A program made the translations under genes and the position numbers. A model generated the notes under the pieces. The model worked only from the letters and a program-made list of their open reading frames with translations. It was not told where the DNA came from and searched no databases. A stretch of DNA of 64,000 nucleotides. Origin: Gemmatimonadota bacterium (GTDB taxonomy: Bacteria > Latescibacterota > UBA2968 > UBA8231). Positions 1-29,851 of this stretch are shown here, in pieces. The DNA lies in assembly GCA_018672475.1 (NCBI GenBank), contig JABHFS010000116.1, positions 621 through 64,620 on the forward strand. Direction: 5' to 3'. Numbering within the stretch: position 1 is the stretch's first letter; each line of letters opens with the position of its first letter.

Positions 1-165
1 GTCGCCGTACTGGTCGAGCGGTTGAATGCGCTGGGTCTGGCGGCCGTTGAGTTGGTGCGCCAAGTCGCGAGCGATATCAGCCTGACAGCGCAAATCGGCG
101 AGCAGGGATGGCGGAATGATATTGCGGAAGATCTGGTAGCCATTGGCTAGGTATTCGTCGATCAT
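1..165 (-). CDS. Partial CDS (N-terminal 55 aa only; rest lies outside window): phytanoyl-CoA dioxygenase (PhyH) family protein
   Basis: Minus-strand translation from ATG at ~163-165 gives MIDEYLANGYQIFRNIIPPSLLADLRCQADIARDLAHQLNGRQTQRIQPLDQYGD. The 'dGYxVfrnvl..sl..Lr' N-terminal pattern is typical of the PhyH family. The ORF runs off the window edge. Not in the ORF track because it is <60 aa. Confidence 0.4.
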   Translation of the reverse strand, partial: MIDEYLANGYQIFRNIIPPSLLADLRCQADIARDLAHQLNGRQTQRIQPLDQYGD

Positions 166-187
166 AGTTTGCTGTTAATATTCTCTC

Positions 188-1177
188 TTAAGTGAGTTCG
201 GCGATGACTTGGCCGAGCAGTGTTTCGCCACATGCATAGCGGTTGAGGTTGTCGGCGGCGAATTGTGCTCTTTTGCGCGAAGTGCCGTCGGTCGAACCGG
301 CGGTGTGTGGCATGACAAATACATTGGGCAACTGGTAGACGGGCAGGTTCGGGTCGGGCGGTTCTTGCGCGAAAACGTCTAGACCGGCGCCGCCGATGTG
401 TTTATCGAGCAGGGCTTGGTAGAGGGCGGCTTCGTCGACGAGTTCGCCGCGGGCGACGTTGATCAGGCAGGCGGTATTTTTCATTAGGTCTATGCGTCGG
501 GCGTCAATCGTGTGGTGGGTCTCCGGCGTCAGGTGCAGGTGTAGCGACAAATAATCGCTCTCGCGAACTACGCGGTCGACATCGTCGGGGCCGCCGAGGA
601 ATTCGGGTTGAATTTGTGCGAGAATGTCTTCTTCTATGGGGCGCACGTCGATGGCGAGAATGCGCAGGCCAAAGGGCTTGGCCCGGCGTGCCAGTTCTTG
701 GCCGCTGGCGCCGAAACCGATTAAGCCGAGCGTCAGGCCTTCGAGCTCGGTGCCGGCGGGTGAGTAGAGCTGGCCGTCGGTGAAATTGTGGCGGGCTTCT
801 GCATAGCGGTGTGCGTGCATCAGTATAAAGAGCATCGCGCTCTGTGCCAGGGCTACGCTGCTGAGCTGGCCGGGACAATGCGCCAGCAGCAGGCCGGCGT
901 TGAGTATGCCGTCGACATTGACGTGGTCGAGCCCAGTGGTTTGCGCTTGCAGGAATTTGACGCCGGCTTCGGCGGCATAAGTTAATAGTTCGGGAGTGAT
1001 ATTACCGCCGAGGTCGACGATGGCCTCAATGCCCGCGAATTGCAGTGCGGCCGGTTGCTTGCGGTCGAAGATACTCAGCTGGTGGTGGATGTCGATGGCT
1101 TGCACGACGTCGTTGCTCCAGGGTGTGGCCAGTGCGGGGACCGGGTGTGGCAGGAAGAGCACATTGATTTTGCGCAT
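188..1177 (-). CDS. D-isomer-specific 2-hydroxyacid dehydrogenase (NAD-binding; glyoxylate/hydroxypyruvate reductase-like)
   Basis: 329 aa. Rossmann motif GLIGFGASGQELARRAKPFGLRILAID. Catalytic region 'INVARGELVDEAAL...H' is typical of the 2-Hacid_dh_C family. Confidence 0.8.
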   Translation of the reverse strand: MRKINVLFLPHPVPALATPWSNDVVQAIDIHHQLSIFDRKQPAALQFAGIEAIVDLGGNITPELLTYAAEAGVKFLQAQTTGLDHVNVDGILNAGLLLAHCPGQLSSVALAQSAMLFILMHAHRYAEARHNFTDGQLYSPAGTELEGLTLGLIGFGASGQELARRAKPFGLRILAIDVRPIEEDILAQIQPEFLGGPDDVDRVVRESDYLSLHLHLTPETHHTIDARRIDLMKNTACLINVARGELVDEAALYQALLDKHIGGAGLDVFAQEPPDPNLPVYQLPNVFVMPHTAGSTDGTSRKRAQFAADNLNRYACGETLLGQVIAELT

Positions 1178-1181
1178 GCGA

Positions 1182-2000
1182 TTAATACTCCAATCCGTCG
1201 CGAATTTGTGCGAGGTGTTGGCATCCGATCGTCAAAAAAGTCTCATCGCCACCAGCGAGAATTAAAGAGAAGCCGTCGTCTATGGCCCGTTGCAGCGATT
1301 GCGCTTCGAAGGCCGGGCGGTAGACGCCGATGCCGCCCGGTTTACCGGAACGCCGGGCGGCATCGGCGAGTTTGGCTTGGGCGTCCTGAAAGACCTGGCC
1401 TTCGTAGTCGAAGGGCACACCTAACGAGATCGATAGATCGACGGGGCCTATAATAAAACTATCGAAGCCTTCGACGGCGAGTATTTCGTCGATATTGTCG
1501 ACCGCTTCAGCCGTTTCGATTAGGCCGATAAATAAGACCTGGTCATTGATTGTCGAAAAGTATTCTTCGGTATTCAGACCGTATTGTGATGCGCGGTGTG
1601 GCCCGAAGCCGCGAATGCCTATTGGCGGATAACGACAGGCGCGGGCGCCCGCTTCGGCTTGCTCAGCGGTGTTGATGAAGGGAGCGAGGATGCCCATTGC
1701 GCCCATGTCGAGGTAGAGGCGGATTTGTTCTTCGTCAACGCGCGAGAGGCGGACGACAGGGGTGGCAGGGGTATTGCCTATGGCTTGTAGTTGCGCTTGG
1801 ATGCCGGGTGGGGTCTGTGGGGCGTGCTCGGTGTCGATGACGAGGTAGTCGAAACCGGAGTGACCGAAAAGTTCGGCGATGGCGGGGGAGGCGAAGCGGA
1901 GTTGCGCGCCAAAGGCGGGGGTGTTGGCGGCGAGTTTTTCTTTGATGCGATTTTGCATAGAGAAAATCCTTGGGAGAGGGCTGAATGCAAATATTATCAT
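1182..2000 (-). CDS. HpcH/HpaI aldolase family protein (2-keto-3-deoxy-acid aldolase-like)
   Basis: 272 aa. 'LVIDTEHAPQTP', 'RYPPIGIRGFGP' and 'VFQDAQAKLADAARRSGKP' are motifs of the HpcH/HpaI (class II aldolase/citrate-lyase beta-like) fold. 4-nt spacing to the upstream gene suggests an operon. Confidence 0.75.
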   Translation of the reverse strand: MIIFAFSPLPRIFSMQNRIKEKLAANTPAFGAQLRFASPAIAELFGHSGFDYLVIDTEHAPQTPPGIQAQLQAIGNTPATPVVRLSRVDEEQIRLYLDMGAMGILAPFINTAEQAEAGARACRYPPIGIRGFGPHRASQYGLNTEEYFSTINDQVLFIGLIETAEAVDNIDEILAVEGFDSFIIGPVDLSISLGVPFDYEGQVFQDAQAKLADAARRSGKPGGIGVYRPAFEAQSLQRAIDDGFSLILAGGDETFLTIGCQHLAQIRDGLEY

Positions 2001-2045
2001 TGAAAGTTCATATGATCCTTGGCCGTTTCAGGGCAGTATTGGACC

Positions 2046-3107
2046 TTATAAAATAGATTCTTGCACCACCGCCTCATCCACTCCCAAGTCTTTCGCCGAA
2101 TCGCACAAAGTCTGCCAGGTCGTATCGTCGATTTCGATACCATTGGCTTCACGGTCCTTGCGGTTTTTCTCCTCAATTTCGCCAGGCATCAGAATTTCGT
2201 CAAAACCAGGTGCTTTGCGCGCGCTTTTTACGAAGTCGATGAAGCGCTGGACCTCGGCAGCAAAGCCGAGTTCCTCGGGCAGGCGGTCGCAGTCGATGAT
2301 CAGCGAATACATGCCGTTGAGCAGGCGCTGGTCGTTGGCGGGGTTGGAGCAGGAGTTGCCGGTCAGCGCGCCGGCGAACATCTCGGCGATTATGCTGAGG
2401 CCGTAGCCTTTGTGCCCACCGAAGGGCAAGAGCACGCCGGGCGGGTCGGTGTAGAATTGCGCTGGGTCGGTGATGGCGTTGCCTGCGTTATCCATGATGC
2501 AGCCGGGTTCGACTTCGACGCCCTTGTTGAGCGCGACTTTCAATTTGCCTTCGGCGATGGCGCAGGTCGAGATATCGAGGATAATGGGTTTTTTGCCTTC
2601 GACGGGTACGCCAGCGGCGATGGGGTTGGCCGAAAGGCGGCGGTCGATGCCGCCGAAGGGGGCGACGAGTAGCCCATAGCCGCTGGTATTGACGAAGTGG
2701 AAGGATGCCATACCGGCGTCGGCGACCATCGTCGGCCAGTCGCCGATGCGGCCGAGGTGTGCGCTATTGCGCAGGGACACGGTGGCGATGCCGTGTTTTT
2801 TGGCCATGTCGATGCCCAATTGCATCGCTTGTTCGCCGATGACTTGGCCGAAGCCGAAGTTGCCGTCGACGATGGCCATCGAATCGGTCTGGAAGATTAC
2901 GCTCAATGACTGATTGGTACGGGTCTGATCATTTTTGACATAGTCGATATAATAGGGTGCGCGGATCACGCCGTGCGAATCGTGGCCGGTGAGGTTGGAT
3001 TGCACGAGGTAGAAGGCGATGCGTTCGGCTTCTTTAGATTCCGAGCCGACGCGTTCAAAGAGTTGTTGGATGAAGTCGCGCAGTTTGTTGGGATTGAGGT
3101 GTAGCAT
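2046..3107 (-). CDS. Ldh_2 family malate/L-lactate (L-sulfolactate/ureidoglycolate-type) dehydrogenase
   Basis: The ORF-track entry 2046..3395 has a 96-aa Arg-rich N-terminal artefact. The internal Met gives 'MLHLNPNKLRDFIQQLFERVGSESKEAERIAFYLVQSNLTGHDSHGVIRAPYYIDYV', a canonical Ldh_2 N-terminus. The ATG lies 1-2 nt after the stop of the upstream cyclase gene. Confidence 0.75.
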   Translation of the reverse strand: MLHLNPNKLRDFIQQLFERVGSESKEAERIAFYLVQSNLTGHDSHGVIRAPYYIDYVKNDQTRTNQSLSVIFQTDSMAIVDGNFGFGQVIGEQAMQLGIDMAKKHGIATVSLRNSAHLGRIGDWPTMVADAGMASFHFVNTSGYGLLVAPFGGIDRRLSANPIAAGVPVEGKKPIILDISTCAIAEGKLKVALNKGVEVEPGCIMDNAGNAITDPAQFYTDPPGVLLPFGGHKGYGLSIIAEMFAGALTGNSCSNPANDQRLLNGMYSLIIDCDRLPEELGFAAEVQRFIDFVKSARKAPGFDEILMPGEIEEKNRKDREANGIEIDDTTWQTLCDSAKDLGVDEAVVQESIL

Positions 3108-3109
3108 AG

Positions 3110-3754
3110 TCAGTCGTTTATCCTGGCGAAGGCGCGCACCGGCGAGCCGTCCCGGCCGACGATGGCCAAGGGTATGGCGCTGAAGTCGAAGGGGCGGGGG
3201 CCGATGGCGTCGAGGTTGGTGAGGTTTTCGACGATTAGCAGGTTGTTGCCGAGCAATACGAGATGGGCCTCGTGCGGTGAGCGGTCGACGGAGGGGAAGT
3301 CGACGCCTAGCAAAAGCACGCCGCAGTCGACGAGTAGCTGCGCGGCGGCGGCGGTGAGCACGGGGTGTTCGGTGAAGAAATGGTCTTCGCCCCATTGTCT
3401 GTACCAGCCGGTGTGCAGGATGGCGTGGCGGTGAGTGGTGAGTTGCTCGCGATGAGGCGACAGATGCTGTGCGTCTATTACGGGCAGGTCGAAGAGGTCG
3501 AGTAGAACGGCGGGGCCGGTGCAGTCTGTGAGCGGGATCTGGTCTATGGTGGGGCCGTTGGCGTAGAAGTGGTAGGGGGCGTCAATGTGGGTGGCGCAGT
3601 GGATGGGTAGGGTGAGTTGGCCGCAGTTTAGGCTTTGGCGTTCTTCGCGCCCGGTTTGTTCGGTACTGGCGAGGATTTTTATTTCTACGGATGGGTCGCC
3701 TGGGAAGGGTGGGGTGTTGTTGGATAGGGGGTAGCTTAGGTCAATTAGGGGCAT
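3110..3754 (-). CDS. Cyclase family protein (kynurenine formamidase-like metal-dependent hydrolase)
   Basis: 214 aa. Signature 'CATHIDAPYHFYANG' (HxGTHxDxPxH-like) of the cyclase family (PF04199). Confidence 0.7.
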   Translation of the reverse strand: MPLIDLSYPLSNNTPPFPGDPSVEIKILASTEQTGREERQSLNCGQLTLPIHCATHIDAPYHFYANGPTIDQIPLTDCTGPAVLLDLFDLPVIDAQHLSPHREQLTTHRHAILHTGWYRQWGEDHFFTEHPVLTAAAAQLLVDCGVLLLGVDFPSVDRSPHEAHLVLLGNNLLIVENLTNLDAIGPRPFDFSAIPLAIVGRDGSPVRAFARIND

Positions 3755-3765
3755 GGGATGCTCCG

Positions 3766-4488
3766 TTAGATCTCTTTGAGTTTGGATAAGAGATTTGTGC
3801 CCCGGTCGAAGAGCAGGTCGAGGTCTGATTTCATGGTGATGCCCTGGAAACCGGCGGCTTTTTGTGCGGCGAAATCGTCGGGAGAATAGGTATTGCAGCA
3901 GGGCATTTTGCCGGCGGCGAGGGTGGTGTCGACGATCTTTTTGAGTGCGGCTTGCTGTGCGGGCTCTTGCTCGTATTCGGCGCGGTGGCGCGAAAGGCCT
4001 AGTGATATCGCGAGGTCGACCGGTCCGACGAAGCAGCCGTCGACACCGGGTAGGGCCATGATTTCTTCGGCTTGGTTGACCGCGTCGATATGTTCCATTT
4101 GCACTAGCAGCAGGGTTTCTTCATTGGCGCGTTCGAAATAATCGGCGCCGTAGTGCAGGAAGTTGTCGCCGCCCAAGGAGCGGTCGCCGACGGGGGGGTA
4201 TTTGGCGGCGCGGGCGACGGCGGTGGCGGTTTCGAGCGAGTTGACCATTGGCACGACTACGCCGCTGGCGCCGAGGTCGAGCGCTTTTTCGACTTCGCCG
4301 GGATGGCCGACCGAGGTGCGGACGAGCGGGCGGGCGCCGGTCGCGAGGGCGGCGTGGATGCACTCATAGGCGGTTTCCCAATTCATTGCGCCGTGCTGTA
4401 GGTCGAGAATAATCCAATCCCAGCCCATCTGTCCCAGATAGCGGGATATCATCGGTTGCGGAATACTTTGCCAGATACCGACTGCCAT
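3766..4488 (-). CDS. HpcH/HpaI aldolase family protein (second copy)
   Basis: 240 aa. 'ILDLQHGAMNWETAYE', 'KYPPVGDRSLGG' and 'VGPVDLAISLG' match the HpcH/HpaI aldolase fold. Paralogous to 1182..2000. Confidence 0.7.
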   Translation of the reverse strand: MAVGIWQSIPQPMISRYLGQMGWDWIILDLQHGAMNWETAYECIHAALATGARPLVRTSVGHPGEVEKALDLGASGVVVPMVNSLETATAVARAAKYPPVGDRSLGGDNFLHYGADYFERANEETLLLVQMEHIDAVNQAEEIMALPGVDGCFVGPVDLAISLGLSRHRAEYEQEPAQQAALKKIVDTTLAAGKMPCCNTYSPDDFAAQKAAGFQGITMKSDLDLLFDRGTNLLSKLKEI

Positions 4489-4562: not shown

Positions 4563-5459
4563 TCAACTCGAAAACCCCGGTGTTCCTCGGCCCCGGCCAG
4601 CCGCTTGGTTGAGTTCCATATCGCCTGAATTCACTTTCGCGTCTGTATGCGCGTCCCACAAGTCGAGCCCGAGTAGCTTGCGGCCCAATGGGGTCAACGC
4701 GGAAGTGGTGCCGTGCTGGCGTTCCCAGTTGCGCGGGTCGCCGGGGAAGGGATTGCCTTCCGGTGCCTTGCGATGCAGCCAGGCGTCAATGCGCCATTGG
4801 CGGGCGGCTTCGTTTTGCTCCTGCGCCGGCGACATCGACATATATTGCGCTAAGCGGGGTTGATCCGAAGTGTTGGGGCTGACGCCGTGTGCTAATTGAC
4901 TATTCCAAATAAGTAGGTCGCCGGCATTGATGGGCACGGTTTCTACGGTGAGACCGGTCAGATCGGGTTTGTGCGGGTCACGGTCTTTAGGTTGTGTCTT
5001 GATCCATTCGGGCAGGCGCTTGGGCATGCCAGGTACGCATTGGAAACCACCTTGGCTGGGTGCGGTGTCGGTCAGGCTTAAAATGCCTTGTACGTCGAAG
5101 GGCAGCGGGTCGAGCCGGGTGTCGATATCCCAATGGATAAACCCTGCGAATTCGAATCCTGGGCGATTCGGCGGGTTGAGATTGCAGCGGTCGATACTGG
5201 TCCACAGCTTTTCGGTGTTCCAGATATCGGCGAAGGCGCCGTGGATACGTGGCAGTTGGCGGATGGCCCACAGCGCGGGGTGGTGATACATCTCGACCAT
5301 ACCCGAACCGTTGAGTTCGATCATGCCATTTTTGCGCTCGGGGTGGCGATACCAAGTATCGGAATTGGCCGGGGCCATCTGCTGGAAGGCCCAGATGGCG
5401 TCGACGACCGCCTGGATCATCTCGGGTGGAGCGGCCTCGCGGACGATGACATAGCCCAT
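4563..5459 (-). CDS. Phytanoyl-CoA dioxygenase (PhyH) family Fe(II)/2-oxoglutarate oxygenase
   Basis: 298 aa. 'FIHWDID' (HxD) and a downstream 'LAHGVSPN' His. Overall size and pattern fit the PhyH family. Confidence 0.55.
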   Translation of the reverse strand: MGYVIVREAAPPEMIQAVVDAIWAFQQMAPANSDTWYRHPERKNGMIELNGSGMVEMYHHPALWAIRQLPRIHGAFADIWNTEKLWTSIDRCNLNPPNRPGFEFAGFIHWDIDTRLDPLPFDVQGILSLTDTAPSQGGFQCVPGMPKRLPEWIKTQPKDRDPHKPDLTGLTVETVPINAGDLLIWNSQLAHGVSPNTSDQPRLAQYMSMSPAQEQNEAARQWRIDAWLHRKAPEGNPFPGDPRNWERQHGTTSALTPLGRKLLGLDLWDAHTDAKVNSGDMELNQAAGRGRGTPGFSS

Positions 5460-5564
5460 GTCGTCGAAAAAGGTGCGGTCTTCGGAGTTTAGTACGTGGA
5501 TGATATTGGATTTCCCCCTGTTAAGGCGCTTGCGATTCAGTCATAGGATGTGTGCGTTCGAAGC

Positions 5565-6389
5565 TTAAGACCAGACGAATATCTCGTCGCGATCTGCGGA
5601 CATCGCAAAGAAGAAAGCCAAGACTACGCGAGGGGAAGTGCGCACGACGGGCGGTACCGTGTGGATATTTTCGGTGTAGAAGAAATAGAGATCGCCGGGT
5701 TCGAGTAATACTTGCGCGTGGGCGATTTTCTGTGCCTGCACATAGTCGTCGAATTCGCTGGAACTGATAACGGCGTTGACCTCGTCGTCGGCGTAACAGT
5801 CGTAGATAAAGGGCTCGCCGTCGGGTTCGGCACTTTGCAGGCACAGGACGCCGGCGAATTGGTGCGCGAAGTCGCCGACGGCGTATTCGGATTTTGAGCG
5901 CCGAGCTACCGAGTCGAAGTGCGGCCTGTGCCCCTCATCGCCGTGGTAAATGCGGAAGATGGCCGGGCCGTAGAGGCGGTCGTTGGGCTCGTGGGCGGTA
6001 AGCACCTTATTGTCGGGAGCTAGTTCAGCGAGGGCTTCGTACATGGTGCGTACGGGATCGTCGAAGCCGTCGAAGAGGTGGGAAAAGAGCGCGTGGGTGC
6101 GCTCGGCGTGCGCGAAAAAGGCTTCGGGGTCGGCACCGACCCGGCCGAGGCTGGTGCCGAGATCGAGGTAGGGGCCGCCGTTGAGTTGGCTTTCGACGCC
6201 GACGGTCTCCTGGTTGAAATACCCGCGTTCGGAAAAGCGCTGCATCAGACCGGTGCAATGCTCTGGGTTATAGGCGTTGCGCAGGACGAGGGCGGGGATT
6301 TGTCGATCGGCCAGGGCTTGCAGTGGCTGCGGGTATTTTTGCAGGATCTGCTCAGGGGTGGCGGCAAATGCTTGCCAATGTGGGTTCAT
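5565..6389 (-). CDS. Hypothetical protein, possible non-canonical Fe(II)/2OG oxygenase-like
   Basis: 274 aa in operon context. 'IFRIYHGDEGHRPHFDS' (HxD) and a later 'ENIHTVPPVVRTSPR' (His + Arg). Family assignment is weak. Confidence 0.3.
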   Translation of the reverse strand: MNPHWQAFAATPEQILQKYPQPLQALADRQIPALVLRNAYNPEHCTGLMQRFSERGYFNQETVGVESQLNGGPYLDLGTSLGRVGADPEAFFAHAERTHALFSHLFDGFDDPVRTMYEALAELAPDNKVLTAHEPNDRLYGPAIFRIYHGDEGHRPHFDSVARRSKSEYAVGDFAHQFAGVLCLQSAEPDGEPFIYDCYADDEVNAVISSSEFDDYVQAQKIAHAQVLLEPGDLYFFYTENIHTVPPVVRTSPRVVLAFFFAMSADRDEIFVWS

Positions 6390-6512: not shown

Positions 6513-7961
6513 TTATTTGGCCAGCAGCATTTTGCGCGCTTCGATACGGTCGCCGGCGCGCAGGCGATAAAAATAGAGCCCGTTGGCCAAATCGACGGCG
6601 TCGAAGCGGATCTGGTGGGTGCCGGCCGGTTGCAGGCCGTCGACTAGTGTGGACAAGCGCTGGCCGGTGATATCGTAGATGCTGAGTTCGGTCTGCGCGG
6701 TGGCGGGCAGGGTATAGCGGATGGTGGTCTGCGGGTTGAAAGGGTTGGGATAGTTTTGTTCTAGGGCGAATAGGGTGGGCTGGCTGGTCTCTTCGAGGGC
6801 GACGGCGGTGGGTTCGGGATCGGCTTCGAAGGTGTAGATGCCGCCGTCGAAGGCCAGGATATAAAGTTCTCCGGCCTGATCTTCGCCAAAGCTGGCGATG
6901 CCGCCGGGCGCTTTAGCCAGCAGCGTGTTTTCAGTGACTTCGCCGTTTTGGTAATGCAGGCCCCAGACCAGACTGGTTTCGAAGTCGCCGTAGATATAGG
7001 CGCCGGTAAGCTGTGCGCTACGGTGGCCGCGGTAGACGTAGCCGCCGGTTACCGAGCGGCCCTCGTCGTGTGCGTATTCGACCACCGGCAGCGCCAGGCC
7101 TTCGGTTTCGCAGCCGGTGGTGGGGCGGAAGCACTGAAAGCCTTCCATGGTGTTCCAGCCGTAGTTACCCCCTTTTTCGATGAGGTCAATTTCCTCGCGA
7201 TTGCCCTGGCCAACGTCGCCCGTCCATAAGTCGCCGGTCAGGCGGTCGAAGCTAAAACGCCAGGGATTGCGCAGGCCCCAGGCCCAGATCTCTTCGCGCC
7301 AGCCGTCTGCGTTGCCAGTGAAGGGGTTGTCGGCGGGGATGCCATAGGCTAAGCCATCGTGTTGCGTGTTGACGTCGATGCGTAGGATGGTGCCTAGAAG
7401 GGTTGTCGGGTCCTGGCCGTTTTGGAAAAGGTCGTTGGCTGCGCCGCCGTCGCCGAGGCCAATATAGAGCATGCCGTCCGGACCGAAGGCGATCTGGCCG
7501 CCATTGTGGTTGCCGGCGGGTTGCTCGATGTCGAGCAGGGCGCGCTCGCTGTCCGGGTCGGCGCGCGCGGGATCGCTGGAGACGCGGAATTCGGCGATGC
7601 GCGAGAACAGGTTGCCGTGGTTGTAATAGACATAGAACAGGCCATTGCTCTCGTATTGCGGGTGGAAGGCCGTGCTGAGCAGACCGGCTTCGTTGGGGCC
7701 GTTGTTGACGCGCTGACTGATATCGAGAAAAAGGCCGGCAGTGGCGATGTCGTTGCGGTTGGGAAAGACGCTGATTACGCCGCGTTGCTCGGTGACGAAG
7801 ACGCGGTCGCTGCCGTCACTGGCGTGGTCGAGGAAGACCGGGCGGTTGAACGAGAGGTTGGGGAAGGCCCGGTGCAGAGCGACGGGTTGTAGGCTTTGAG
7901 CATAGGTGCTGGATAGGGTCAGGCTGCAAAAAGCTAAATGTATCAGGAGCGCGTGTTTCAT
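6513..7961 (-). CDS. PQQ-dependent sugar (glucose/sorbosone) dehydrogenase with C-terminal T9SS type-A sorting domain
   Basis: The ORF-track entry 6513..8648 has a 229-aa Arg-rich artefact; the real start is at the signal peptide MKHALLIHLAFCSLTLSSTYAQ. The GSDH beta-propeller carries 'AFHPQYESNGLFYVYY', 'GNHNGGQIAFGPDGMLYIGLGDGG' and 'GLRNPWRFSFD'. The C-terminus 'NYPNPFNPQTTIRYTLP...ELSIYDITGQRLSTLVDG...GLYFYRLRAG' is a Por_Secre_tail-like CTD. Confidence 0.8.
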   Translation of the reverse strand: MKHALLIHLAFCSLTLSSTYAQSLQPVALHRAFPNLSFNRPVFLDHASDGSDRVFVTEQRGVISVFPNRNDIATAGLFLDISQRVNNGPNEAGLLSTAFHPQYESNGLFYVYYNHGNLFSRIAEFRVSSDPARADPDSERALLDIEQPAGNHNGGQIAFGPDGMLYIGLGDGGAANDLFQNGQDPTTLLGTILRIDVNTQHDGLAYGIPADNPFTGNADGWREEIWAWGLRNPWRFSFDRLTGDLWTGDVGQGNREEIDLIEKGGNYGWNTMEGFQCFRPTTGCETEGLALPVVEYAHDEGRSVTGGYVYRGHRSAQLTGAYIYGDFETSLVWGLHYQNGEVTENTLLAKAPGGIASFGEDQAGELYILAFDGGIYTFEADPEPTAVALEETSQPTLFALEQNYPNPFNPQTTIRYTLPATAQTELSIYDITGQRLSTLVDGLQPAGTHQIRFDAVDLANGLYFYRLRAGDRIEARKMLLAK

Positions 7962-7972
7962 CGGTAGTCCTC

Positions 7973-17023: not shown

Positions 17024-17109
17024 CGGTGATTGATTGTGACCCCTTAAGCGATACTTTATATTTCCGACGGCTAAATATGAGTAGAAACTTATCGACGAGG
17101 AGAATTTCG

Positions 17110-23333: not shown

Positions 23334-25289
23334 TTATCGACCGCTATTCCAGTATTCGCTTAGAGCCGCTCCGGCTGCGGCATCCTCGATATGTCGCGCG
23401 GCGAGCCGGTAGGCTTGCTGCGCGGCTTGCCCGTTACCAGCTTTTCTGTAGAGCCAGATCAAGGCGCGATAGGTTTCCGCGGTCTTTGAACCTCGTTCGG
23501 CGGCTTGTTGAAAGGCGGCTACGGCCTGGTCCTTCGCGTCCTTCGCGATGAAGACCGCGCCGAGGTTGTGGTAGGCGGAGGGTTCTTCGGGGCGGCGGCG
23601 GACGGCCTCCTGGTAGGCGGCTTCAGCCCGGTCATACTGTCGGCGGGCGAAGTAGAGATTGCCGGCTTCGAGCGCACGGGAATCGATGTCGGGCGGAAGT
23701 TTTATCGGCGGCGAGAGGCGGGCCTGGGAAAGATCTTTTTCTTCTTCGCTCGGCTCGCGGTAGGCCGCGTGCTCGATCAATGAATCGTAGTACCCGGTAT
23801 TGAGTCGCCATATTTCTAACCAACGATCTACTGTCCAGAGTGGACCGCTGATCACCGTGCGCAATTTGTCGTAATAGGCGGCGAGGCCCTCGTCTGCAAT
23901 GAGATTATAGCCGTAGAGATGGCTTTCGATATATCCTTCCGGCATGATGCGCGCGTAGTGGCCCGGTGCCCAATCGGCATCGACGTAAGCCGGCAACCGC
24001 GCGAGCAAAGGGTCGGTGATACCCAAAGCGTCGAGGTGGTGGATATGGGGGCCGGCGTAAAAACCGAGAATGCCGAGGTTGGTGTAGGTGGTGACGGCCA
24101 GCTCTGTGGCATTGGCTTTTTCCGCGATTGTATGGCCGAGGTCGACCCACTGATGCTGCGGATAGTGGGCGTCGGTGATAAGGGCGGACAACAGGCCGGT
24201 ACTGGTGCGATAGTTGGCGAATTCGTCGACGATATGGTGGTTTCCCGGCGCGCTTTGGTAATCTAATCCGCTGCGCAGTGGGGAATAGGGCGTGACCAGC
24301 CCGATGACTAGGATAGCGCCGAGGGCAATATACAAATGCTGGCGGGCGGCGAAACGGAGATTGTGTAAGATCAGTAGCACGGCAGCGAAAAAGGGCGTGC
24401 TGAGGAAGCGACCGCTCATATAGTCGCCGCCGACTTTGACGGTATAGGCGAGGTATAGAATCGGGCCGAGCAGCAGGGGGAGTTGCCGCCATTTTTTTGT
24501 GTAGCATAGTCCTGCCGTGCAGCAAGCAATTGTAGTGAGCGTGATCGGGTCTACTTGTAGAGAATTGTACAGATAATACAGGCCCTGTTGCGCTAAGGAG
24601 AGAGCCGGGATGCCGGTATTGAGTTTGCCGTAGGCGGTATTGGGAACGAGAAAGCCGTAGTAGCAGAGGGAGAAGATTTCCCAAACAGCGAAAGGGGCAA
24701 AACCAACGGCCACTGCGCGGAAGGCTTGTAGACTGCGAAGGTGCCAATAACCCGTCACCAGCGCGGGCAGGTATATCAGCAGGGTGTCCATGCGGTTTAA
24801 GGTGGCCAGACCGGCGACAAGTGAGAGGATGGTTAGTGATTGTAGCGTAGGTTGCGAGCGGAAAAAGATGGCGATGAAAAGGGCGAGCAATAAATGCGAA
24901 AGCGGATTTTCCAGTCCCGAGGTCGAAAAGTCGATAAAGGCCTTGGATGCACAGAGCAGTGCAATGCCAACTAGCGCGTTGCCAAGCGATGGCGCGATGC
25001 GCAAAGCCATGATAAGAACGGCGGCGACGGCGACGGCCCAGCAAAGTAAAATATTCGTGTAGTATATTTCGCCGGTTAGGAGATAGGCGGTGCTGACGAC
25101 GAAAAACCAGAGGGGATGCGTATAGGTCTGGACTCGCTCGCTGATATTCCAGGTCGGCCCGTAGCCATTGATAAGATTGTCGACGCTGCGGTAGGTGATA
25201 AAGGCGTCTTCGTGCAGCCAGGCGTTTTGTAAGACGACGAGGGCGTAGAGCGCGATAAAACCGGGCAGAGCCAGGCGTCTAAGCGGCAT
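23334..25289 (-). CDS. GT-C-fold polytopic membrane protein with C-terminal TPR repeats (putative glycosyltransferase)
   Basis: 651 aa. About 12 hydrophobic helices with 'EDAFITYRSVDNL' in the first loop. The last ~150 aa hold TPR-like 'AEAAYQEAVRRRPEEPSAYHNLG' repeats. Overlaps the downstream PhyH gene by 11 nt. Confidence 0.5.
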   Translation of the reverse strand: MPLRRLALPGFIALYALVVLQNAWLHEDAFITYRSVDNLINGYGPTWNISERVQTYTHPLWFFVVSTAYLLTGEIYYTNILLCWAVAVAAVLIMALRIAPSLGNALVGIALLCASKAFIDFSTSGLENPLSHLLLALFIAIFFRSQPTLQSLTILSLVAGLATLNRMDTLLIYLPALVTGYWHLRSLQAFRAVAVGFAPFAVWEIFSLCYYGFLVPNTAYGKLNTGIPALSLAQQGLYYLYNSLQVDPITLTTIACCTAGLCYTKKWRQLPLLLGPILYLAYTVKVGGDYMSGRFLSTPFFAAVLLILHNLRFAARQHLYIALGAILVIGLVTPYSPLRSGLDYQSAPGNHHIVDEFANYRTSTGLLSALITDAHYPQHQWVDLGHTIAEKANATELAVTTYTNLGILGFYAGPHIHHLDALGITDPLLARLPAYVDADWAPGHYARIMPEGYIESHLYGYNLIADEGLAAYYDKLRTVISGPLWTVDRWLEIWRLNTGYYDSLIEHAAYREPSEEEKDLSQARLSPPIKLPPDIDSRALEAGNLYFARRQYDRAEAAYQEAVRRRPEEPSAYHNLGAVFIAKDAKDQAVAAFQQAAERGSKTAETYRALIWLYRKAGNGQAAQQAYRLAARHIEDAAAGAALSEYWNSGR

Positions 25290-26094
25290 TGGCAGCTAGG
25301 TCGCGGAGGAGTCGGTCGACTACTTTTTTGCGTTGGCCGGGCACGGCGGCCTGTTCCAAATCGTAGATTTCTTCGGGAATGAGGTTGCGCTGGTCTTCGA
25401 TGGGCAAGCTGCCGTGCGAGCCCTCGCCGATATAGCGGTTGAATACGGTCATGCGCGGATATTTCTCGGTCCAGGCTTTGGCGCCGTGGTAGAGTGCCTC
25501 GGTAAAAATAACGCAGTCGCCCGCTTGCACTGGCACATTGACGACGGTGGGTGGTCCGTCGTGGATCGAGACGCTGTCGGGTAATTCGAAATTGCGTTTG
25601 TGGCTGCCGGGCAGACAGACGAAGCCGGTTCCGGCGGGCACGTCGACCAATGAGATTGCAGCGTTGAGAAAGCCGGCGTAGGGCGCGCCATCTTCAACCT
25701 GGTAATCGCGGCCGGCGGCGTGAAAATTGATCTCGTCGGATGTGCGATAGTTTTTGGTCAGTGCGGTATCGACCAGGCAGGGGTTTTGCCGGGTGAAGGC
25801 GAGGATAACGCGCATGATCTGGCGGTTGAGGACCAGGCGTTGGAATGTTTCGTCGGCGTAGTGCACGTGGTTGATCCAGCGCGCCAGGGTTGGTGAGGCC
25901 TTAGGGTTGCTCAGTGCGGTCGAAGTCAGCGGCGGTGGCAGCTCTTCCAGTGTCATTTCATGCCACCGGTCGCCGAGTTCAATCATCCGGCTAATGTCTT
26001 CTTTGACTACGACGTCTTTTAGGATGATATAACCGTGGTGGTCAAAGAACCACTTTTCTTTTTCGCTCAGCATAGCCCCTCTATTGGCCATCAC
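25279..26094 (-). CDS. Phytanoyl-CoA dioxygenase (PhyH) family protein
   Basis: 271 aa. 'WFFDHHGYIILKDVV' and 'CLPGSHKRNF', plus a 'VIFTEALYHG' distal His. Confidence 0.75.
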   Translation of the reverse strand: MMANRGAMLSEKEKWFFDHHGYIILKDVVVKEDISRMIELGDRWHEMTLEELPPPLTSTALSNPKASPTLARWINHVHYADETFQRLVLNRQIMRVILAFTRQNPCLVDTALTKNYRTSDEINFHAAGRDYQVEDGAPYAGFLNAAISLVDVPAGTGFVCLPGSHKRNFELPDSVSIHDGPPTVVNVPVQAGDCVIFTEALYHGAKAWTEKYPRMTVFNRYIGEGSHGSLPIEDQRNLIPEEIYDLEQAAVPGQRKKVVDRLLRDLAANAA

Positions 26095-26881
26095 CGAAGC
26101 CCGGCAAGGTCGAGGTGCTGAGCAGGCCGCCGTCTACATCGAGCGCGACTCCGGTTAAAAAGGACGATTCTTCGGCGAGAAAAAAGAGGATGGCGTTAAC
26201 GATATCCCCTTGTGTGGGGTTGCGACCGAGCGGGATGTCCGCCGCCGTCGCGTTGAGGATCGCTTCATTGTTGGCGCCCGTCGTCTGGTGTTTGTAGGCG
26301 AGTACGTCTTGGCCCATACCGGTCGTTGAGACGCCGATCGGGCAGACGCAGTTGACGGTGACGCCGTCGGGGGCCAATTCGCCGGCCAGTGCCTTAGTTA
26401 GGCCGACGACGCCGAATTTTGCGGCGCAGTAGGAGGCGATCAGCGCGCAGCCGATTTTTGAAACATCAGAGCCGATATTGACGATGCGGCCGCGCTGACC
26501 GCTTTGGCGCAGCAGCGGTGCGGCGGCTTGGCAGCAGAGGAAGACGCCCTTGAGGTCGATATCGATGACCCGGTCCCAATCGGCCTCGGTGGTTTCTTCG
26601 AGCGGGCCGAAGTGGATGACCCCGGCGGAGTTGACCAGCGCGTCCAGGCCTCCGAAGCGCTCGTCGCAGGCGGCTACAGTCTGCTGTACGGAGGCTGGTG
26701 AAGTGACGTCGAGCTTTAACGGCAGGATCTGGTCGTTGTTCAGTTCCTCCGCAGCCGCATGCAGTTTTTCTTCGTCGATATCGGCGATGGCCACTTGCGC
26801 GCCTTGCGCGAGTAGGGCCTTGGCAGTGCTCAGGCCGAAACCGCTGGCCCCGCCGGTAATCAGCGCGCGTCTAGGCTTCAA
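26081..26881 (-). CDS. SDR family oxidoreductase
   Basis: 266 aa. 'ALITGGASGFGLSTAKALLAQGAQVAIADI' and 'YCAAKFG' (YxxxK). Confidence 0.85.
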   Translation of the reverse strand: MKPRRALITGGASGFGLSTAKALLAQGAQVAIADIDEEKLHAAAEELNNDQILPLKLDVTSPASVQQTVAACDERFGGLDALVNSAGVIHFGPLEETTEADWDRVIDIDLKGVFLCCQAAAPLLRQSGQRGRIVNIGSDVSKIGCALIASYCAAKFGVVGLTKALAGELAPDGVTVNCVCPIGVSTTGMGQDVLAYKHQTTGANNEAILNATAADIPLGRNPTQGDIVNAILFFLAEESSFLTGVALDVDGGLLSTSTLPGFGDGQ

Positions 26882-28001
26882 AATGATATTTCTCCACGAT
26901 ATCTTCGTTGACTTCGACCCCTAGCCCCGGCTGGTCGCGCACGGCGAGATAACCGGCTTGCTGTATCCAGGGGTCGGTGACCAGTTCGTGCTGCATCGGC
27001 GATTCGTGTGGTTTGAAGTCCATAGCGACCCCGTGCGTCGAGTTGGCCATCAGGTGCACGCTGGCGGCGGTATTGAGCGCGCTGGACCAGGTGTGCGCGC
27101 TCCACTGCAGATTCTCGGCCTCGATTAGTTTGATATACTGGCGGCAACCGGTGATGCCGTGGCAGCGGCCCGGGTCCATCTGTATCACGTCGACTCCGCC
27201 GGAGTGGATCAGGCGGCGATAGCTGTCGAGGTCCCACTCATCTTCACCGGTGCCGATCGGGGTCGCGGTGGCGTCGCGCAGCCGGGCGTGCGCGTCGAGG
27301 TCGGAGGGCAAGAGCGGTTGCTCGATCCAGCGCAGGCGGTAGGGTTCGAGGTCACGGAAGCGCTGGATGGCGGTGTTGAGGTCCCAGATATTGCGCGCGC
27401 CGGGCGTGTCGACGATAAGTTCGAGTTCGTCGCCGATCGTTTCGCGGACCTGGCGCACGATGTCGATGTCTTTATTGCGGTCGAGGCCAAAGACGGCTTC
27501 GGGTCGCATGCCCCAACCGGCTTTGACCACGTGGTAGCCCTGTTCTTTGAGCCAGCGAAATTCGCCGAGGGTCCAGTCGAAGTCTTCCATATCGAAGATA
27601 AACGAGGCCATGGCGACGACCTTGTCGTGCAGTTGCCCGCCGAGCAGCCGACAGACGGGCTGGCCGAGCGTTTTGCCCGCTAGGTCCCATAGGGCCATGT
27701 CGATAGCGCTGACGGCAAAGGCCGCGATGCCTTCGGGGCCGTACCACCAGACGTGGTCGAGCATGCGGCGCCAGTGGCGTTCGACGTCGAGCGCGTTTTC
27801 GTTGATTAGCAGCGGGGCCAGCCCCTGTTCGACGATGATTTTGGTGGCGAGGGTCGCCTCGCGGAATTGCGAGATGCACTCGCCCCAGCCGACTTGGCCG
27901 TCTTCGCCTTCAATGCGGACGAGGGTGATATAGCGCTCGATGCCCTTGTAGTGGGGTTCGGGATAGGCCATGGGAAAAGCCTGGATTTTGTTGATTTTCA
28001 C
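26871..28001 (-). CDS. Mandelate racemase/muconate lactonizing enzyme family (enolase superfamily) sugar-acid dehydratase
   Basis: Start moved to GTG (V35 of ORF 26871..28103), 7 nt after an AGGA RBS, giving 'VKINKIQAFPMAYPEPHYKGIERYITLVRIEGEDGQVGWGEC'. Metal ligands lie in a 'VDTPGARNIWD...IEQPL' region. Confidence 0.8.
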   Translation of the reverse strand: MKINKIQAFPMAYPEPHYKGIERYITLVRIEGEDGQVGWGECISQFREATLATKIIVEQGLAPLLINENALDVERHWRRMLDHVWWYGPEGIAAFAVSAIDMALWDLAGKTLGQPVCRLLGGQLHDKVVAMASFIFDMEDFDWTLGEFRWLKEQGYHVVKAGWGMRPEAVFGLDRNKDIDIVRQVRETIGDELELIVDTPGARNIWDLNTAIQRFRDLEPYRLRWIEQPLLPSDLDAHARLRDATATPIGTGEDEWDLDSYRRLIHSGGVDVIQMDPGRCHGITGCRQYIKLIEAENLQWSAHTWSSALNTAASVHLMANSTHGVAMDFKPHESPMQHELVTDPWIQQAGYLAVRDQPGLGVEVNEDIVEKYHFEA

Positions 28002-28196
28002 GGTAAGCGTCCTGGTTGGCGGTGGATTGCTGAAGGGACTGTAGTGTTCTGTTGCGCGTTTTGATATGGGCGGAAAGATAGTACCGCAGGCGATTGTGGG
28101 CAATACGCGGAGATTCGTGGTTTGACGGAGCCGGGACGTCGGTTGTAGCTTACGCGCGGAAGGTGCACATGTTGCGTATAGCGGGAGACTTGTACA

Positions 28197-28961
28197 ATGA
28201 GCGAAACACTCAATCTCGATCTAAACTATTACGAACACCCACGCGGAACCGGTATCCGCGAGGCCGATTGCCGGCGCAGTATTTTGCATTGGCAATTGCC
28301 GGTTGAGCAGGTGGCGTTGGTCTGTGTGGATGTGTGGTCCGAGCACTATATACAGACTCATGTCGATCGCACGACGAAGATCACGCTGGAACGGATCGTG
28401 CCGGTGCAAGAGGCCTTTCGTCAAATGGGGGCGTTGGTGGTGCACGGACCGAGTCCGGATTGTGCGCGCAAGTATCCCGAGTGGTTGGAAGAGGAGGTGG
28501 ACGAGCGGCAGCGACCTGAGGGCGATTGGCCGCCGGCGGACTTTCGCGGTAAAGCAGGGGAGTATGCCGGTTTTGCCCGACCCCATACGGAGCGGACCGA
28601 GGAATTCGACCGCATCATCCGCGATAGGCGTATTGTGCCCGAGGCGGCGCCCAGGGGCGATGACCGGGTGGTGGCCAATGGCGAGGCGCTGCATCGGTTG
28701 TTGCGGCGTCGGGGTGTGTTATTCTTGTTTTATATGGGTTTTGCCGCCAATATGTGCGTGCCCTTCCGCGACTACGGGATGCGGGCGATGAAGGACCGGG
28801 GTTACGAGGTTGTTTTGCTCGAGGATTGCACGACGGCGATCGAGGTCGAGGATACGGCGGACGATCTGCTATTGTCGCAGGCCTGTAAGATCGACGCGGC
28901 GTTGACGATCGGTTATACGCTGCAGTCGGCGGATCTGTTGACGGCCTGTAGCGAGGTATAA
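28197..28961 (+). CDS. Isochorismatase-like cysteine hydrolase family protein
   Basis: 254 aa. 'VALVCVDVWSEHY' parallels the 'aLlviDmQndf' block. 'VLFLFYMGFAANMCV' carries the catalytic Cys as in 'vcGvatniCV'. Confidence 0.5.
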   Translation: MSETLNLDLNYYEHPRGTGIREADCRRSILHWQLPVEQVALVCVDVWSEHYIQTHVDRTTKITLERIVPVQEAFRQMGALVVHGPSPDCARKYPEWLEEEVDERQRPEGDWPPADFRGKAGEYAGFARPHTERTEEFDRIIRDRRIVPEAAPRGDDRVVANGEALHRLLRRRGVLFLFYMGFAANMCVPFRDYGMRAMKDRGYEVVLLEDCTTAIEVEDTADDLLLSQACKIDAALTIGYTLQSADLLTACSEV

Positions 28962-29026
28962 CAGAGGGGTGATTTTACTGCGTTATTCGTACGGTACTGA
29001 CGACTTCATAGATAGGGAGACTTCAT

Positions 29027-29851
29027 ATGATGACGGTTGAAGAACGCTATCTCTTCGATCTACAGGGTTATATGGTGCTCGAAGATGTGCTCAAAGCAGA
29101 CGAGTTGCGCGATCTCAATCAGGTGCTCGACGAGTACGACCTGTGGAATGAATCCCCTGGGCAGGGTGGATTCTTCGATTCTTGGCGGAACGGCGACCAC
29201 CAGGTTTCGGCCGGGCCCGTACACCGTTTTGCCAAGCCATTCCGCCAATTGCTTGGCCACACCCGCATTGTCCCCTACCTCACAGACCTACTCGGCAAAC
29301 AGTTCCGTTTCGACCACGGCCACGCGATGCTTATGAAAAAAGGTGGAGAGGCACTCGCGCTGCACGGTGGCGGAGCGCCGAAGGAGCCCGGGATCCGCTA
29401 TGAGGTCGCCGACGGACAGATCCGCTCCGAACTGTTGGTCGTCGAATACGCGTTGTGCGATGTGGCCGAGGGGGACGGAGGTCTTTGCGTGGTGCCGGGC
29501 AGTCATAAGAGCAATTTCGCCTGCCCGTCGAGCCTTGCGTCCCTTGAGAAGCCGGGGGCATGGCTGCGGAATGTGCCGCAGAAAGCCGGTTCGGTGGTTA
29601 TTTTCACCGAAGCGCTCACGCATGGTACACTGCCTTGGACGGCGGATCATGAACGTCGGGCGCTTTTTTATCGCTATACCCCGGGGTATATGGCGTTTGT
29701 GGGGCGTTACCGGGAGGATGGTCTTGAGGCATCCGATGGCGGTTACCCTCAGCCCTCACACAGCGAAGAAGGCGATTGGAGTCCCGAGGAACGGCGCATC
29801 CTCGAAGCCCCGTATTTTTGGCAACGCGACGACACTTTTCCGGAAAGCTGA
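29027..29851 (+). CDS. Phytanoyl-CoA dioxygenase (PhyH) family protein
   Basis: 274 aa. 'YLFDLQGYMVLEDVL', 'CVVPGSHKSNF' and 'VIFTEALTHG'. Closest in style to 25279..26094. Confidence 0.75.
   Translation: MMTVEERYLFDLQGYMVLEDVLKADELRDLNQVLDEYDLWNESPGQGGFFDSWRNGDHQVSAGPVHRFAKPFRQLLGHTRIVPYLTDLLGKQFRFDHGHAMLMKKGGEALALHGGGAPKEPGIRYEVADGQIRSELLVVEYALCDVAEGDGGLCVVPGSHKSNFACPSSLASLEKPGAWLRNVPQKAGSVVIFTEALTHGTLPWTADHERRALFYRYTPGYMAFVGRYREDGLEASDGGYPQPSHSEEGDWSPEERRILEAPYFWQRDDTFPES

Follow-up and report, generated by a model that had tools for sequence, protein, structure and literature searches.

We analysed a window of 64,000 nucleotides (positions 621 to 64,620 of contig JABHFS010000116.1, GenBank assembly GCA_018672475.1; coordinates below are those of the window) from an uncultured pelagic marine Latescibacterota bacterium. 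Its first 29,851 positions form a real, non-random cluster of Fe(II)/2-oxoglutarate (2OG) oxygenase genes, most of them in the PhyH family (PF05721). Five or six anciently diverged oxygenases lie within what appear to be operons for acidic or sulfated-glycan oligosaccharides and sugar acids, and on balance we lean towards reading them as accessory catabolic enzymes that act on sugar-derived substrates.

The nearest species-representative genome is a Candidatus Latescibacterota metagenome-assembled genome (MAG) with 95% protein identity and unchanged gene order, and the type IX secretion system (T9SS) sorting domains encoded in the window fit with a phylum of the FCB (Fibrobacterota, Chlorobiota and Bacteroidota) group. 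The arrangement was seen again in at least 20 independent assemblies, and residue-identical proteins in the same order occur on dozens of separately assembled contigs, including two NCBI MAGs and contigs from Station ALOHA and Saanich Inlet samples. Because identical proteins and gene order recur in so many independent assemblies, the layout is not a chimera or an assembly artefact. A sibling contig from the same population (L007) differs from the window by 10 mismatches over 11 kb.

Open reading frames (ORFs) were called, and each plausible gene of the window was scanned against Pfam. Four genes, named here by their first coordinate, score above the PhyH gathering cut-off of 22 bits: 4563 (4563-5459, minus strand, 48.9 bits), 16199 (16199-17023, plus strand, 54.2 bits), 25279 (25279-26094, or 25279-26073 in the feature list, minus strand, 48.9 bits) and 29027 (29027-29851, plus strand, 52.2 bits). 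Gene 5565 (5565-6389, minus strand), previously proposed as a possible extra divergent oxygenase, proves to be an unambiguous member of the WelO5 family of Fe/2OG oxygenases (PF22814, 81.3 bits versus a cut-off of 27). Positions 1-165 of the minus strand hold the first 55 codons of a divergent PhyH-like protein of 263 amino acids (aa), the rest of which lies past the window start; a full-length copy recovered from the sibling contig (L007:11013-11804) contains GWHRDG and scores 21.4 bits (E 3.5e-4), below the cut-off. A further PhyH protein, of 502 aa (67 bits), is encoded 2.7 kb upstream of the window start. The sequence-only reading of this DNA had located every PhyH gene correctly and had counted at least six. 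Profile scoring confirms a PhyH or 2OG oxygenase identity for four genes and, through PF22814, for 5565, and leaves the 263-aa protein just short of it; the strict in-window count is four PhyH genes, one WelO5-family gene and one borderline gene. Exact protein look-ups of 29027 and of the 2-hydroxyacid dehydrogenase described below gave matches, and that of 25279 with its GTG start gave none because gene callers choose a later start.

The Pfam scan found no PhyH genes between 32 and 64 kb of the window, the remaining 34 kb of which encodes T9SS-secreted proteins and housekeeping functions (RodA, PBP2, a sigma factor, ParA and MtnA). A PhyH domain is carried by more than 1.9% of poribacterial genes, whereas its share in every other genome available at the time was below 0.049% (Kamke et al. 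2014, PMC3909097). With this frequency of 1.9% taken as a generous, conservative background, the probability of at least four PhyH genes among 28 is P = 0.002, and at ordinary bacterial PhyH frequencies it falls to approximately 1e-9. The PhyH density first noticed from the letters alone is unusual for bacteria in general, but an expansion of PhyH genes was already documented in the related phylum Poribacteria. These values bear on the alternative that the genes are co-located by chance, in a PhyH-rich lineage whose enzymes act on assorted small molecules of dissolved organic matter (osmolytes, phosphonates and amino-acid derivatives) and whose sugar-acid genes are just as numerous, with no shared pathway. 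The poribacterial frequency speaks for such an accumulation and the low P value even at that frequency speaks against it; we regard chance as a possibility to be taken seriously, though not a probable one, and return to it below.

Compared pairwise, the seven oxygenases share 22-30% identity or have no detectable similarity and are therefore old paralogs, in agreement with the earlier view that no recent duplication had occurred. No signal peptide was found in any of them, and the oxygenases are cytoplasmic. None of the PhyH paralogs reached an NCBIfam functional model: scores against PhnY-like models were approximately 22 versus a cut-off of 500, and against the EctD equivalog TIGR02408 (cut-off 336.5) they were 27.3 bits for 16199 and 21.1 bits for 29027. 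A role in phytanoyl-CoA or branched-lipid alpha-oxidation, or in ectoine hydroxylation, is suggested by the name of the Pfam family, by a weak EctD match of 16199 (E 7e-7) and by matches to human PhyH at E 0.05-0.1. With these very low EctD model scores and with no ectABC, acyl-CoA ligase or 2-hydroxyacyl-CoA lyase genes in the 64-kb window, we give such a role almost no weight.

When approximately 130 ORFs of the PhyH family, taken from the window and from related loci, were aligned to a profile, two types of iron site emerged, in which the carboxylates covary strictly: either an Asp at position 115 or a Glu at position 195 is present, and essentially never both. In the 46 ORFs with the classic H-x-D motif, Glu never occurs four residues ahead of the distal His, whereas the 84 ORFs with H-x-G/S/A/N instead carry Glu or Asp at that position. 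Every window paralog retains its His, carboxylate and Arg motifs. The canonical H-x-D...H arrangement is found in 4563 (HWD...H...R), 16199 (HPD...H), 5565 (HFD) and the 263-aa protein (HRD..H..R). The carboxylate is relocated in 25279 (H118-A-A120 ... E192-x3-H196 ... R) and in 29027 (H113-G-G115 ... E195-x3-H199 ... R210). The 2OG-binding Arg aligns in all of the oxygenases but 16199, for which the profile alignment gives Met, with Arg residues adjacent.

An H-x-G ... E-x3-H site with a relocated carboxylate has been described for one enzyme, HygX, which converts hygromycin C to hygromycin B by oxidizing an anomeric sugar carbon to an orthoester (PMC13374393). HygX is the best PDB sequence match for both 25279 and 29027. 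When an AlphaFold2 (AF2) model of 29027 (pLDDT 85, pTM 0.88) was submitted to Foldseek, HygX was again the top match (E 8.6e-19, TM 0.69-0.74), four orders of magnitude ahead, and the top matches were all Fe/2OG oxygenases, supporting a double-stranded beta-helix fold for 29027. This PhyH-type fold is shared with HygX (PDB 4XC9/4XCA/4XCB/4ZPI) and with the orthosomycin oxygenases AviO1, EvdO1 and EvdO2. Both 25279 and 29027 further share with HygX the H-x-G/A ... E-x3-H site and the 2OG Arg, and HygX acts on the anomeric carbon of a carbohydrate. The differences are also considerable. Identity to HygX is approximately 22%, and Lys137 of HygX, a proposed activator of the iron center, aligns with Val in 29027 in the phmmer alignment. 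HygX belongs to an aminoglycoside biosynthetic cluster, whereas the genes described here occur in a catabolic context without glycosyltransferase or aminocyclitol genes, and the hosts of their subfamily are uncultured marine and sponge-associated phyla. Because of the low identity, the replaced Lys137 and the catabolic context, we do not claim membership in the functional class of HygX.

The subfamily to which 25279 and 29027 belong is large. At E <= 1e-30 its profile picked out 382 of 1.84 billion cluster representatives, a number that rises to 1,852 when the threshold is relaxed to E <= 1e-10, and approximately 118 of the 146 top representatives keep the H-x-G/A/S...E-x3-H...R pattern.

The nearest solved relatives of the window oxygenases (HygX, AviO1/EvdO2, SnoK/SnoN and WelO5) are biosynthetic, and the poribacterial PhyH genes, which are highly transcribed, have been labelled with the generic COG term "mitomycin/fumonisin biosynthesis" (Jahn et al. 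2016, PMC5087111). The paralogs could accordingly be imagined as tailoring enzymes of a glycosylated natural-product cluster, as are HygX, EvdO, SnoK/SnoN and WelO5. The island, however, contains no glycosyltransferase, aminotransferase, polyketide synthase, nonribosomal peptide synthetase, nucleoside diphosphate (NDP)-sugar or resistance genes; its neighboring genes are degradative (lyase, sulfatase, esterase, aldolases and dehydratases), and identity to the biosynthetic enzymes is only approximately 20-25%. We consider a biosynthetic role very unlikely.

Several features also recall Fe/2OG halogenases. Genes 25279 and 29027 carry H-x-A/G, 5565 falls in the Pfam family of the WelO5 halogenase, SyrB2 is among the fold matches of 29027, and in the upstream 502-aa protein the C-terminal domain combines H-S-G with the absence of a Glu at the relocated position. 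In 5565, however, HF--D aligns with the HVGND of WelO5; since H-F-D stands where the halogenase has H-V-G, 5565 is predicted to be a hydroxylase. It matches the PF22814 model end to end, retains the distal His and Arg, and unlike WelO5 has no indole-alkaloid context. In 25279 and 29027, the missing Asp is compensated by the Glu of E-x3-H, as in HygX, which is itself no halogenase, and both carboxylates are lost only in the 502-aa protein outside the window. Halogenation was therefore rejected for 5565, 25279 and 29027, and that any of the paralogs is a halogenase seems to us scarcely credible.

The 502-aa protein itself (L007:13901-15409, minus strand in window orientation) is a tandem of two PhyH folds. 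Neither of the two iron-binding His residues survives in its N-terminal copy. The C-terminal copy has H-S-G and, where the relocated Glu would stand, a Ser; it thus lacks a carboxylate ligand at both sites and may, judging from these residues, be halogenase-like or non-canonical. Tandem PhyH forms of approximately 500 aa recur among the subfamily representatives. A different departure is seen in three Latescibacterota loci (L080:10806-11555, L083 and L087), in which the PhyH partner of a HygX-type gene upstream of MR_MLE has H-S-H and a Thr at the relocated position, a combination that would possibly provide a three-His iron site.

The genomic packing of the oxygenases points towards catabolism. 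Gene 25279 is part of a minus-strand operon that runs from 28,001 to 19,862 and in which coding regions overlap or abut. In transcriptional order, it encodes an acid-sugar dehydratase of the mandelate racemase/muconate lactonizing enzyme (MR/MLE) family of the enolase superfamily (26871-28001), a short-chain dehydrogenase/reductase (SDR; 26081-26881), PhyH 25279 itself, whose ends overlap the adjoining genes, a tetratricopeptide repeat (TPR) protein (23334-25289), a GDSL/SGNH esterase with a membrane anchor or signal (22165-23184) and a putative exo-oligouronate lyase resembling polysaccharide lyase family 15 (PL15; 19862-22168). The lyase, with DUF4962 and Hepar_II_III_C domains and no signal peptide, aligns over residues 15-701 with residues 27-729 of the cytoplasmic exo-oligoalginate lyase Atu3025 (PDB 3A0O; E 1.7e-60). 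On the plus strand, 29027 follows an isochorismatase-like hydrolase gene (28197-28961), a pairing with PhyH genes that is also found in locus L096.

PhyH 16199 heads a plus-strand row with gaps of 2-23 bp, in which it is followed by a vicinal oxygen chelate (VOC)/glyoxalase-fold protein (17026-17481; Pfam and NCBIfam scans), a bicupin (17489-18307; Cupin_2 in two stretches) and a metallo-beta-lactamase (MBL)-fold hydrolase (18331-19101; Lactamase_B_3), which is a candidate lactonase. On the same strand upstream lie a xylose-isomerase-like or UxuA-like TIM barrel (13776-14588; UxuA 54.3 bits, AP_endonuc_2 51.3 bits, weak PDB matches) and, directly after it, a Gfo/Idh/MocA oxidoreductase (14658-15758) that is closest to the C-glycoside 3''-oxidase DgpA (PDB 7XR9, E 1.6e-57, full length), the next unrelated PDB match reaching only E 1e-26. 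The pairing recalls glycoside cleavage by oxidation and beta-elimination in the DgpA-DgpB/C, LgdA-LgdB and ThuA/B systems, another non-hydrolytic redox route for glycosides, although the TIM barrel in the window is only UxuA/AP_endonuc_2-like and is not shown to be a DgpB/C homologue. To our knowledge, no 2OG oxygenase is involved in these systems.

The remaining in-window oxygenases belong to a long codirectional row on the minus strand that extends from 13,503 to 1, from a sulfatase through the 263-aa PhyH-like gene and past the window start. Within it, a tight block with gaps of 2-87 bp encodes a class II aldolase of the HpcH/HpaI family (3766-4488; PF03328, 101.9 bits), a PF04199 "cyclase" metal-dependent hydrolase (3110-3754; 103.9 bits), an Ldh_2 family dehydrogenase (2046-3107; PF02615, 345 bits), a second HpcH/HpaI aldolase (1182-1958; PF03328, 114.5 bits; best NCBIfam matches to HpaI/GarL/KDR aldolases, all below cut-off), a D-2-hydroxyacid dehydrogenase resembling glyoxylate/hydroxypyruvate reductase (188-1177; 2-Hacid_dh_C, 172 bits; below all NCBIfam equivalog cut-offs), the 263-aa PhyH-like protein and a protein with a phosphoenolpyruvate (PEP)-utiliser domain. 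The 263-aa gene is separated from its neighbors by 22 and 38 bp.

Across the island, NCBIfam cut-offs are passed only by the Ldh_2 protein (NF007504, malate/lactate/ureidoglycolate dehydrogenase, 374.9 versus 336 bits) and the MBL-fold hydrolase (NF001911, 184 versus 144 bits). The MR dehydratase (best NCBIfam match galactonate dehydratase, 174 bits versus a cut-off of 311), the aldolases and the SDRs all fall under their equivalog cut-offs, so a substrate specificity is not assignable to them. Pfam bears out most of the gene content listed in the sequence-only reading, namely the two HpcH aldolases, Ldh_2, the 2-hydroxyacid dehydrogenase, MR_MLE, the UxuA-like TIM barrel, two SDRs, the sulfatase, the DUF4962/Hepar_II_III lyase, the GDSL hydrolase, VOC and bicupin proteins. 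Its two Gfo/Idh/MocA genes are reduced to one inside 1-29,851, others being located at 47,744-48,748 and upstream of the window. No glycoside hydrolases or transporters were found within the island; an SSF symporter lies at its upstream edge.

A 24-sequence alignment of the subfamily (29027 first, 25279 included) was used to search 185,579 species genomes for related PhyH genes, whose neighborhoods we then examined. Most of the 80 resulting loci belong to Poribacteria, Latescibacterota, Caldilineaceae, Gemmatimonadota and Acidimicrobiia, in many cases as parts of sponge-derived MAGs, and some to cyanobacteria and Streptomyces. At least two PhyH genes occur within 20 kb in 33 of the 80, and some poribacterial loci have five or six. 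An MR_MLE gene lies no more than 10 kb away in 27 loci, often adjacent (Poribacteria, Latescibacterota, Gemmatimonadota, Chloroflexota and Acidimicrobiia); Gfo/Idh/MocA genes are present in 23, sulfatases in 16 and SDRs in 15. Because many loci are related by descent, 79 of them were collapsed to 25 anchor clusters at 70% identity, and gene density was compared with distance from the anchor. MR_MLE density is 4.1 per 100 kb within 2.5 kb and 0.3-1.5 further out, a 3-4-fold excess of MR_MLE genes near this subfamily; the corresponding values are 3.8 and 0-2.2 for Gfo/Idh/MocA and 6.1 and 1.3-2.6 for other PhyH genes. Sulfatase density did not decay with distance from the anchor in the 25 clusters, so we do not claim a statistical enrichment of sulfatases, despite their adjacency in individual loci.

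Some of these loci are compact operons. In L080 (Latescibacterota), the order is PhyH, PhyH, MR_MLE, an aldolase of the dihydrodipicolinate synthase (DHDPS) type, sulfatase and DUF6785. Around a 67% orthologue of 29027 (L095), ABC permeases are followed by PhyH, sulfatase and a deacetylase-GH78 rhamnosidase, then by sulfatase, PhyH, PhyH and MalK, and around a 75% orthologue (L096), PhyH adjoins sulfatase and isochorismatase precedes PhyH and PhyH. A 70% orthologue of 16199 (L101) follows a TIM barrel and an SGSH sulfatase, the same genes that accompany it at 11.8-17 kb of the window. In Poribacteria, one locus with five PhyH genes (L031) also has SDR, 2-hydroxyacid dehydrogenase, ThuA, BNR, Gfo, Amidohydro_2 and MR_MLE genes. 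The region L096:2080-13296 additionally contains five insertion sequence (IS) transposase genes (Transposase_mut, IS66 and DDE_Tnp_1) around the PhyH gene, and one of these transposase genes splits the adjacent sulfatase gene.

Closer relatives of the 25279 operon were gathered by a metagenome search with the MR dehydratase. The MR, SDR and PL15 core is constant among them, whereas PhyH 25279 and the TPR and GDSL genes come and go. PhyH 25279 is present in the window and in L015, L102, L105 and L120. Its intermittent presence beside a constant core suggests that the gene is an accessory to the pathway and not one of its core steps, a behavior typical of enzymes for optional substrate decorations. 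In L015, L102 and L120, a deletion of approximately 2.8 kb fuses TPR residues 1-67 to GDSL residues 267-339; the window genes are intact, the sibling contigs are 95-99% identical, and the deletion is a population-level polymorphism.

Several observations, together with the distance from HygX noted above, weigh against a shared catabolic role. PhyH 25279 is absent from the homologous operon of L103 and L104, in which only frameshifted GDSL fragments are left, so that the homologous-island comparison raised with the first reading of this DNA is divided, with the gene present in four related contigs and absent from two. MR relatives at 65% identity sit in the order 2-hydroxyacid dehydrogenase, MR, Gfo and SDR with no PhyH gene nearby. 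Orthologues of PhyH 4563 that match it at 61-71% identity, from Bryobacteraceae, Alphaproteobacteria, Cyclobacteriaceae and Rhodothermales, lie in unrelated, non-conserved neighborhoods; none was found with the aldolase/Ldh_2 operon in three other phyla. Gene 4563 probably has a conserved stand-alone role, and its placement in the island may be incidental. The sulfatase density is flat, conservation of the island as a whole is confined to the species level, and the 80 loci, all selected by reference to a single subfamily, are in many cases related by descent. Because PhyH, MR_MLE and sulfatase genes are moreover abundant in Poribacteria and Latescibacterota, chance alone is expected to place some of them side by side.

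For chance co-location, then, count the unconserved neighbors of 4563, the dispensability of 25279 in L103 and L104, the missing distance decay of sulfatases and the species-level limit on the whole island, in addition to the poribacterial PhyH frequency. It is opposed by the improbability of the gene count, by coding regions that overlap those of catabolic neighbors, by the distance-dependent enrichment of MR_MLE and Gfo near the subfamily over five phyla and by the independent compact operons of L080, L095 and L101. The conservation of gene neighborhoods, to which the first reading had looked for a check, thus ties 25279, 29027 and 16199 to sugar-acid and glycan genes elsewhere and leaves 4563 without a conserved context.

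We favor, with the moderate confidence expressed at the outset, an accessory role in sugar catabolism. The region would be a mosaic of several cytoplasmic catabolic operons for oligosaccharides and sugar acids from acidic or sulfated glycans. Its degradative set would comprise the PL15-like exolyase, the sulfatase, the GDSL esterase and the DgpA-like glycoside 3-oxidase with its TIM barrel, and its downstream set the MR-family dehydratase, SDRs, HpcH aldolases, Ldh_2, 2-hydroxyacid dehydrogenases and candidate lactonases. Interleaved with these, five or six Fe(II)/2OG oxygenases with two types of active site would consume O2 and 2-oxoglutarate and attack a C-H bond adjacent to an oxygen atom of a sugar, of a sugar acid or of one of its decorations. 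The resulting carbonyl, lactone or freed hydroxyl would pass to the dehydratase, reductase and aldolase steps encoded alongside. The overall theme appears to be the processing, in the cytoplasm and largely without hydrolysis, of oligosaccharides that bear uronate or sulfate and of sugar acids. The suspicion of an uncharacterised oxidative step on carbohydrate or sulfated substrates, voiced in the sequence-only reading, is consistent with the embedding of the oxygenases in sugar-acid and glycan operons, which does not discriminate among the hydroxylation, desulfation and demethylation proposed there.

We infer the substrate class and the reaction of the oxygenases from this context and from analogy, and would call any single reaction unlikely when taken on its own. 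The first choice, by analogy with HygX, would be oxidation at or next to the anomeric carbon to an aldonolactone or aldonate for the MR dehydratase. It is preferred for the HygX-type genes because the sole enzyme characterised with such a site takes an anomeric carbon up to the acid level, and because the product class, lactone or aldonate, is the one on which MR dehydratases and the candidate lactonases nearby act. In its most specific form, this idea would make the HygX-type PhyH proteins (25279, 29027 and several hundred to a few thousand relatives) cytoplasmic anomeric-carbon oxygenases that feed adjacent MR dehydratases. C1 of a glycoside or decorated sugar would be raised from the aldehyde to the acid level, much as in orthoester formation by HygX, so that linkages beyond the reach of hydrolases would be cleaved or activated and an aldonolactone or aldonate delivered straight to the MR dehydratases. 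We put this specific proposal forward as a doubtful one.

Second in rank would be O-demethylation, again by analogy. The PF05721 enzymes PHYHD1/FJS are 2'-O-methyl-nucleoside demethylases that oxidize a ribose O-methyl group, and one active enzyme comes from Poribacteria (PMC12709175). They provide a precedent for sugar O-demethylation within the PhyH family. Their closer relatives are, however, other PhyH genes in the poribacterial loci and not the window genes, and the window paralogs are related to them at the family level only, which adds to the evidence against the catabolic reading collected above. Transfer of the FJS/PHYHD1 demethylase function was rejected, as no meaningful similarity was found to the Poribacteria and Sphingomonas enzymes of that paper's supplement (best BLASTP E 0.004). 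Third would come oxidative desulfation or deamination, for which the possible models, AtsK and KanJ, are out of family or unmatched. AtsK, a 2OG-dependent alkylsulfatase, and KanJ, a PhyH-type deaminating dioxygenase of aminosugars, both remove a heteroatom substituent through hydroxylation of the carbon that bears it, and in the kanamycin pathway the keto product of KanJ is reduced by a separate reductase, KanK. AtsK belongs to the TauD family and not to PhyH, and neither AtsK nor KanJ appeared among the sequence and fold matches of the window paralogs.

An expansion of PhyH genes of unexplained function is established for Poribacteria and has been known since 2014 (PMC3909097). The situation described here resembles it in that many divergent PhyH paralogs occur in a sulfatase-rich, glycan-degrading lineage; the 29027/25279 subfamily has abundant homologues in Poribacteria, where an orthologue of 16199 has also been annotated. 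The window differs in that it comes from a free-living pelagic Latescibacterota bacterium and not from a sponge symbiont, and the poribacterial papers (PMC3909097, PMC5087111) report neither a link to sugar-acid operons nor two types of active site. We found no paper linking bacterial PhyH genes to sulfatases, fucoidan, ulvan, polysaccharide utilization loci or sugar-acid operons. What appears to be new is the same expansion in pelagic Latescibacterota, the large share of PhyH genes with the relocated-carboxylate site of HygX and the strict covariation of the two carboxylate positions, and the distance-dependent association of the HygX-type subfamily with MR-family dehydratases and Gfo oxidoreductases.

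Within the open-access literature searched, the function of the poribacterial PhyH genes has gone unexplained since 2014, and the window offers a compact, assembly-verified test bed for such expansions, with the two active-site types side by side and operon partners that constrain the possible substrates to uronate oligosaccharides, sugar acids, lactones and sulfated sugars. Were the catabolic role correct, an O2-dependent step in marine glycan and sugar-acid catabolism would represent a new enzyme class for polysaccharide degradation, and part of marine carbon turnover would depend on O2 and 2-oxoglutarate. Oxidation of anomeric carbons would, if real, amount to a new non-hydrolytic route of glycan catabolism and would account for why PhyH genes have expanded in Poribacteria, Latescibacterota and further lineages associated with sponges or found in the deep sea. 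Even if the sugar link proved spurious, the relocated-carboxylate site regarded as "exceptional" in HygX would still be the hallmark of a large environmental subfamily.

The start of 4563 is unusual. Its orthologues share 14 conserved N-terminal residues (HVLxSEDRTFFDD), which the window encodes in frame ahead of the annotated ATG (5460-5501, minus strand), and the position of the orthologues' Met is occupied by ATC, with no ATG, GTG or TTG there. The gene has either a non-canonical start or an N-terminally shortened protein.

Upstream of 5565, the minus-strand row continues with a secreted glucose/sorbosone dehydrogenase of the pyrroloquinoline quinone (PQQ) type (6513-7961; 482 aa; GSDH 150.7 bits) that carries a T9SS C-terminal sorting domain (Por_Secre_tail), a TPR protein (7973-10459; Pfam), an SDR oxidoreductase resembling gluconate-5-dehydrogenase or KduD (10568-11401; below the NCBIfam cut-off) and a cytoplasmic S1 sulfatase with an SGSH_C domain and no signal peptide (11779-13125). 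The sulfatase has C-A-A-S-R in place of the usual C-x-P-x-R formylglycine motif, and no genes for the formylglycine-generating enzyme (FGE) or the anaerobic sulfatase-maturating enzyme (anSME) were seen in the window. T9SS C-terminal sorting domains (Por_Secre_tail, CHU_C and FlgD_ig) are concentrated at 6513-7961 and 31924-47724, and the stretch from 31.9 to 47.7 kb encodes four large T9SS-domain proteins in which no other domain was recognised. All 2-kb bins of the window (1-64000) have a positive GC skew (0.03-0.32, mostly 0.1-0.23) independent of gene strand, which is unusually strong for a bacterial chromosome.

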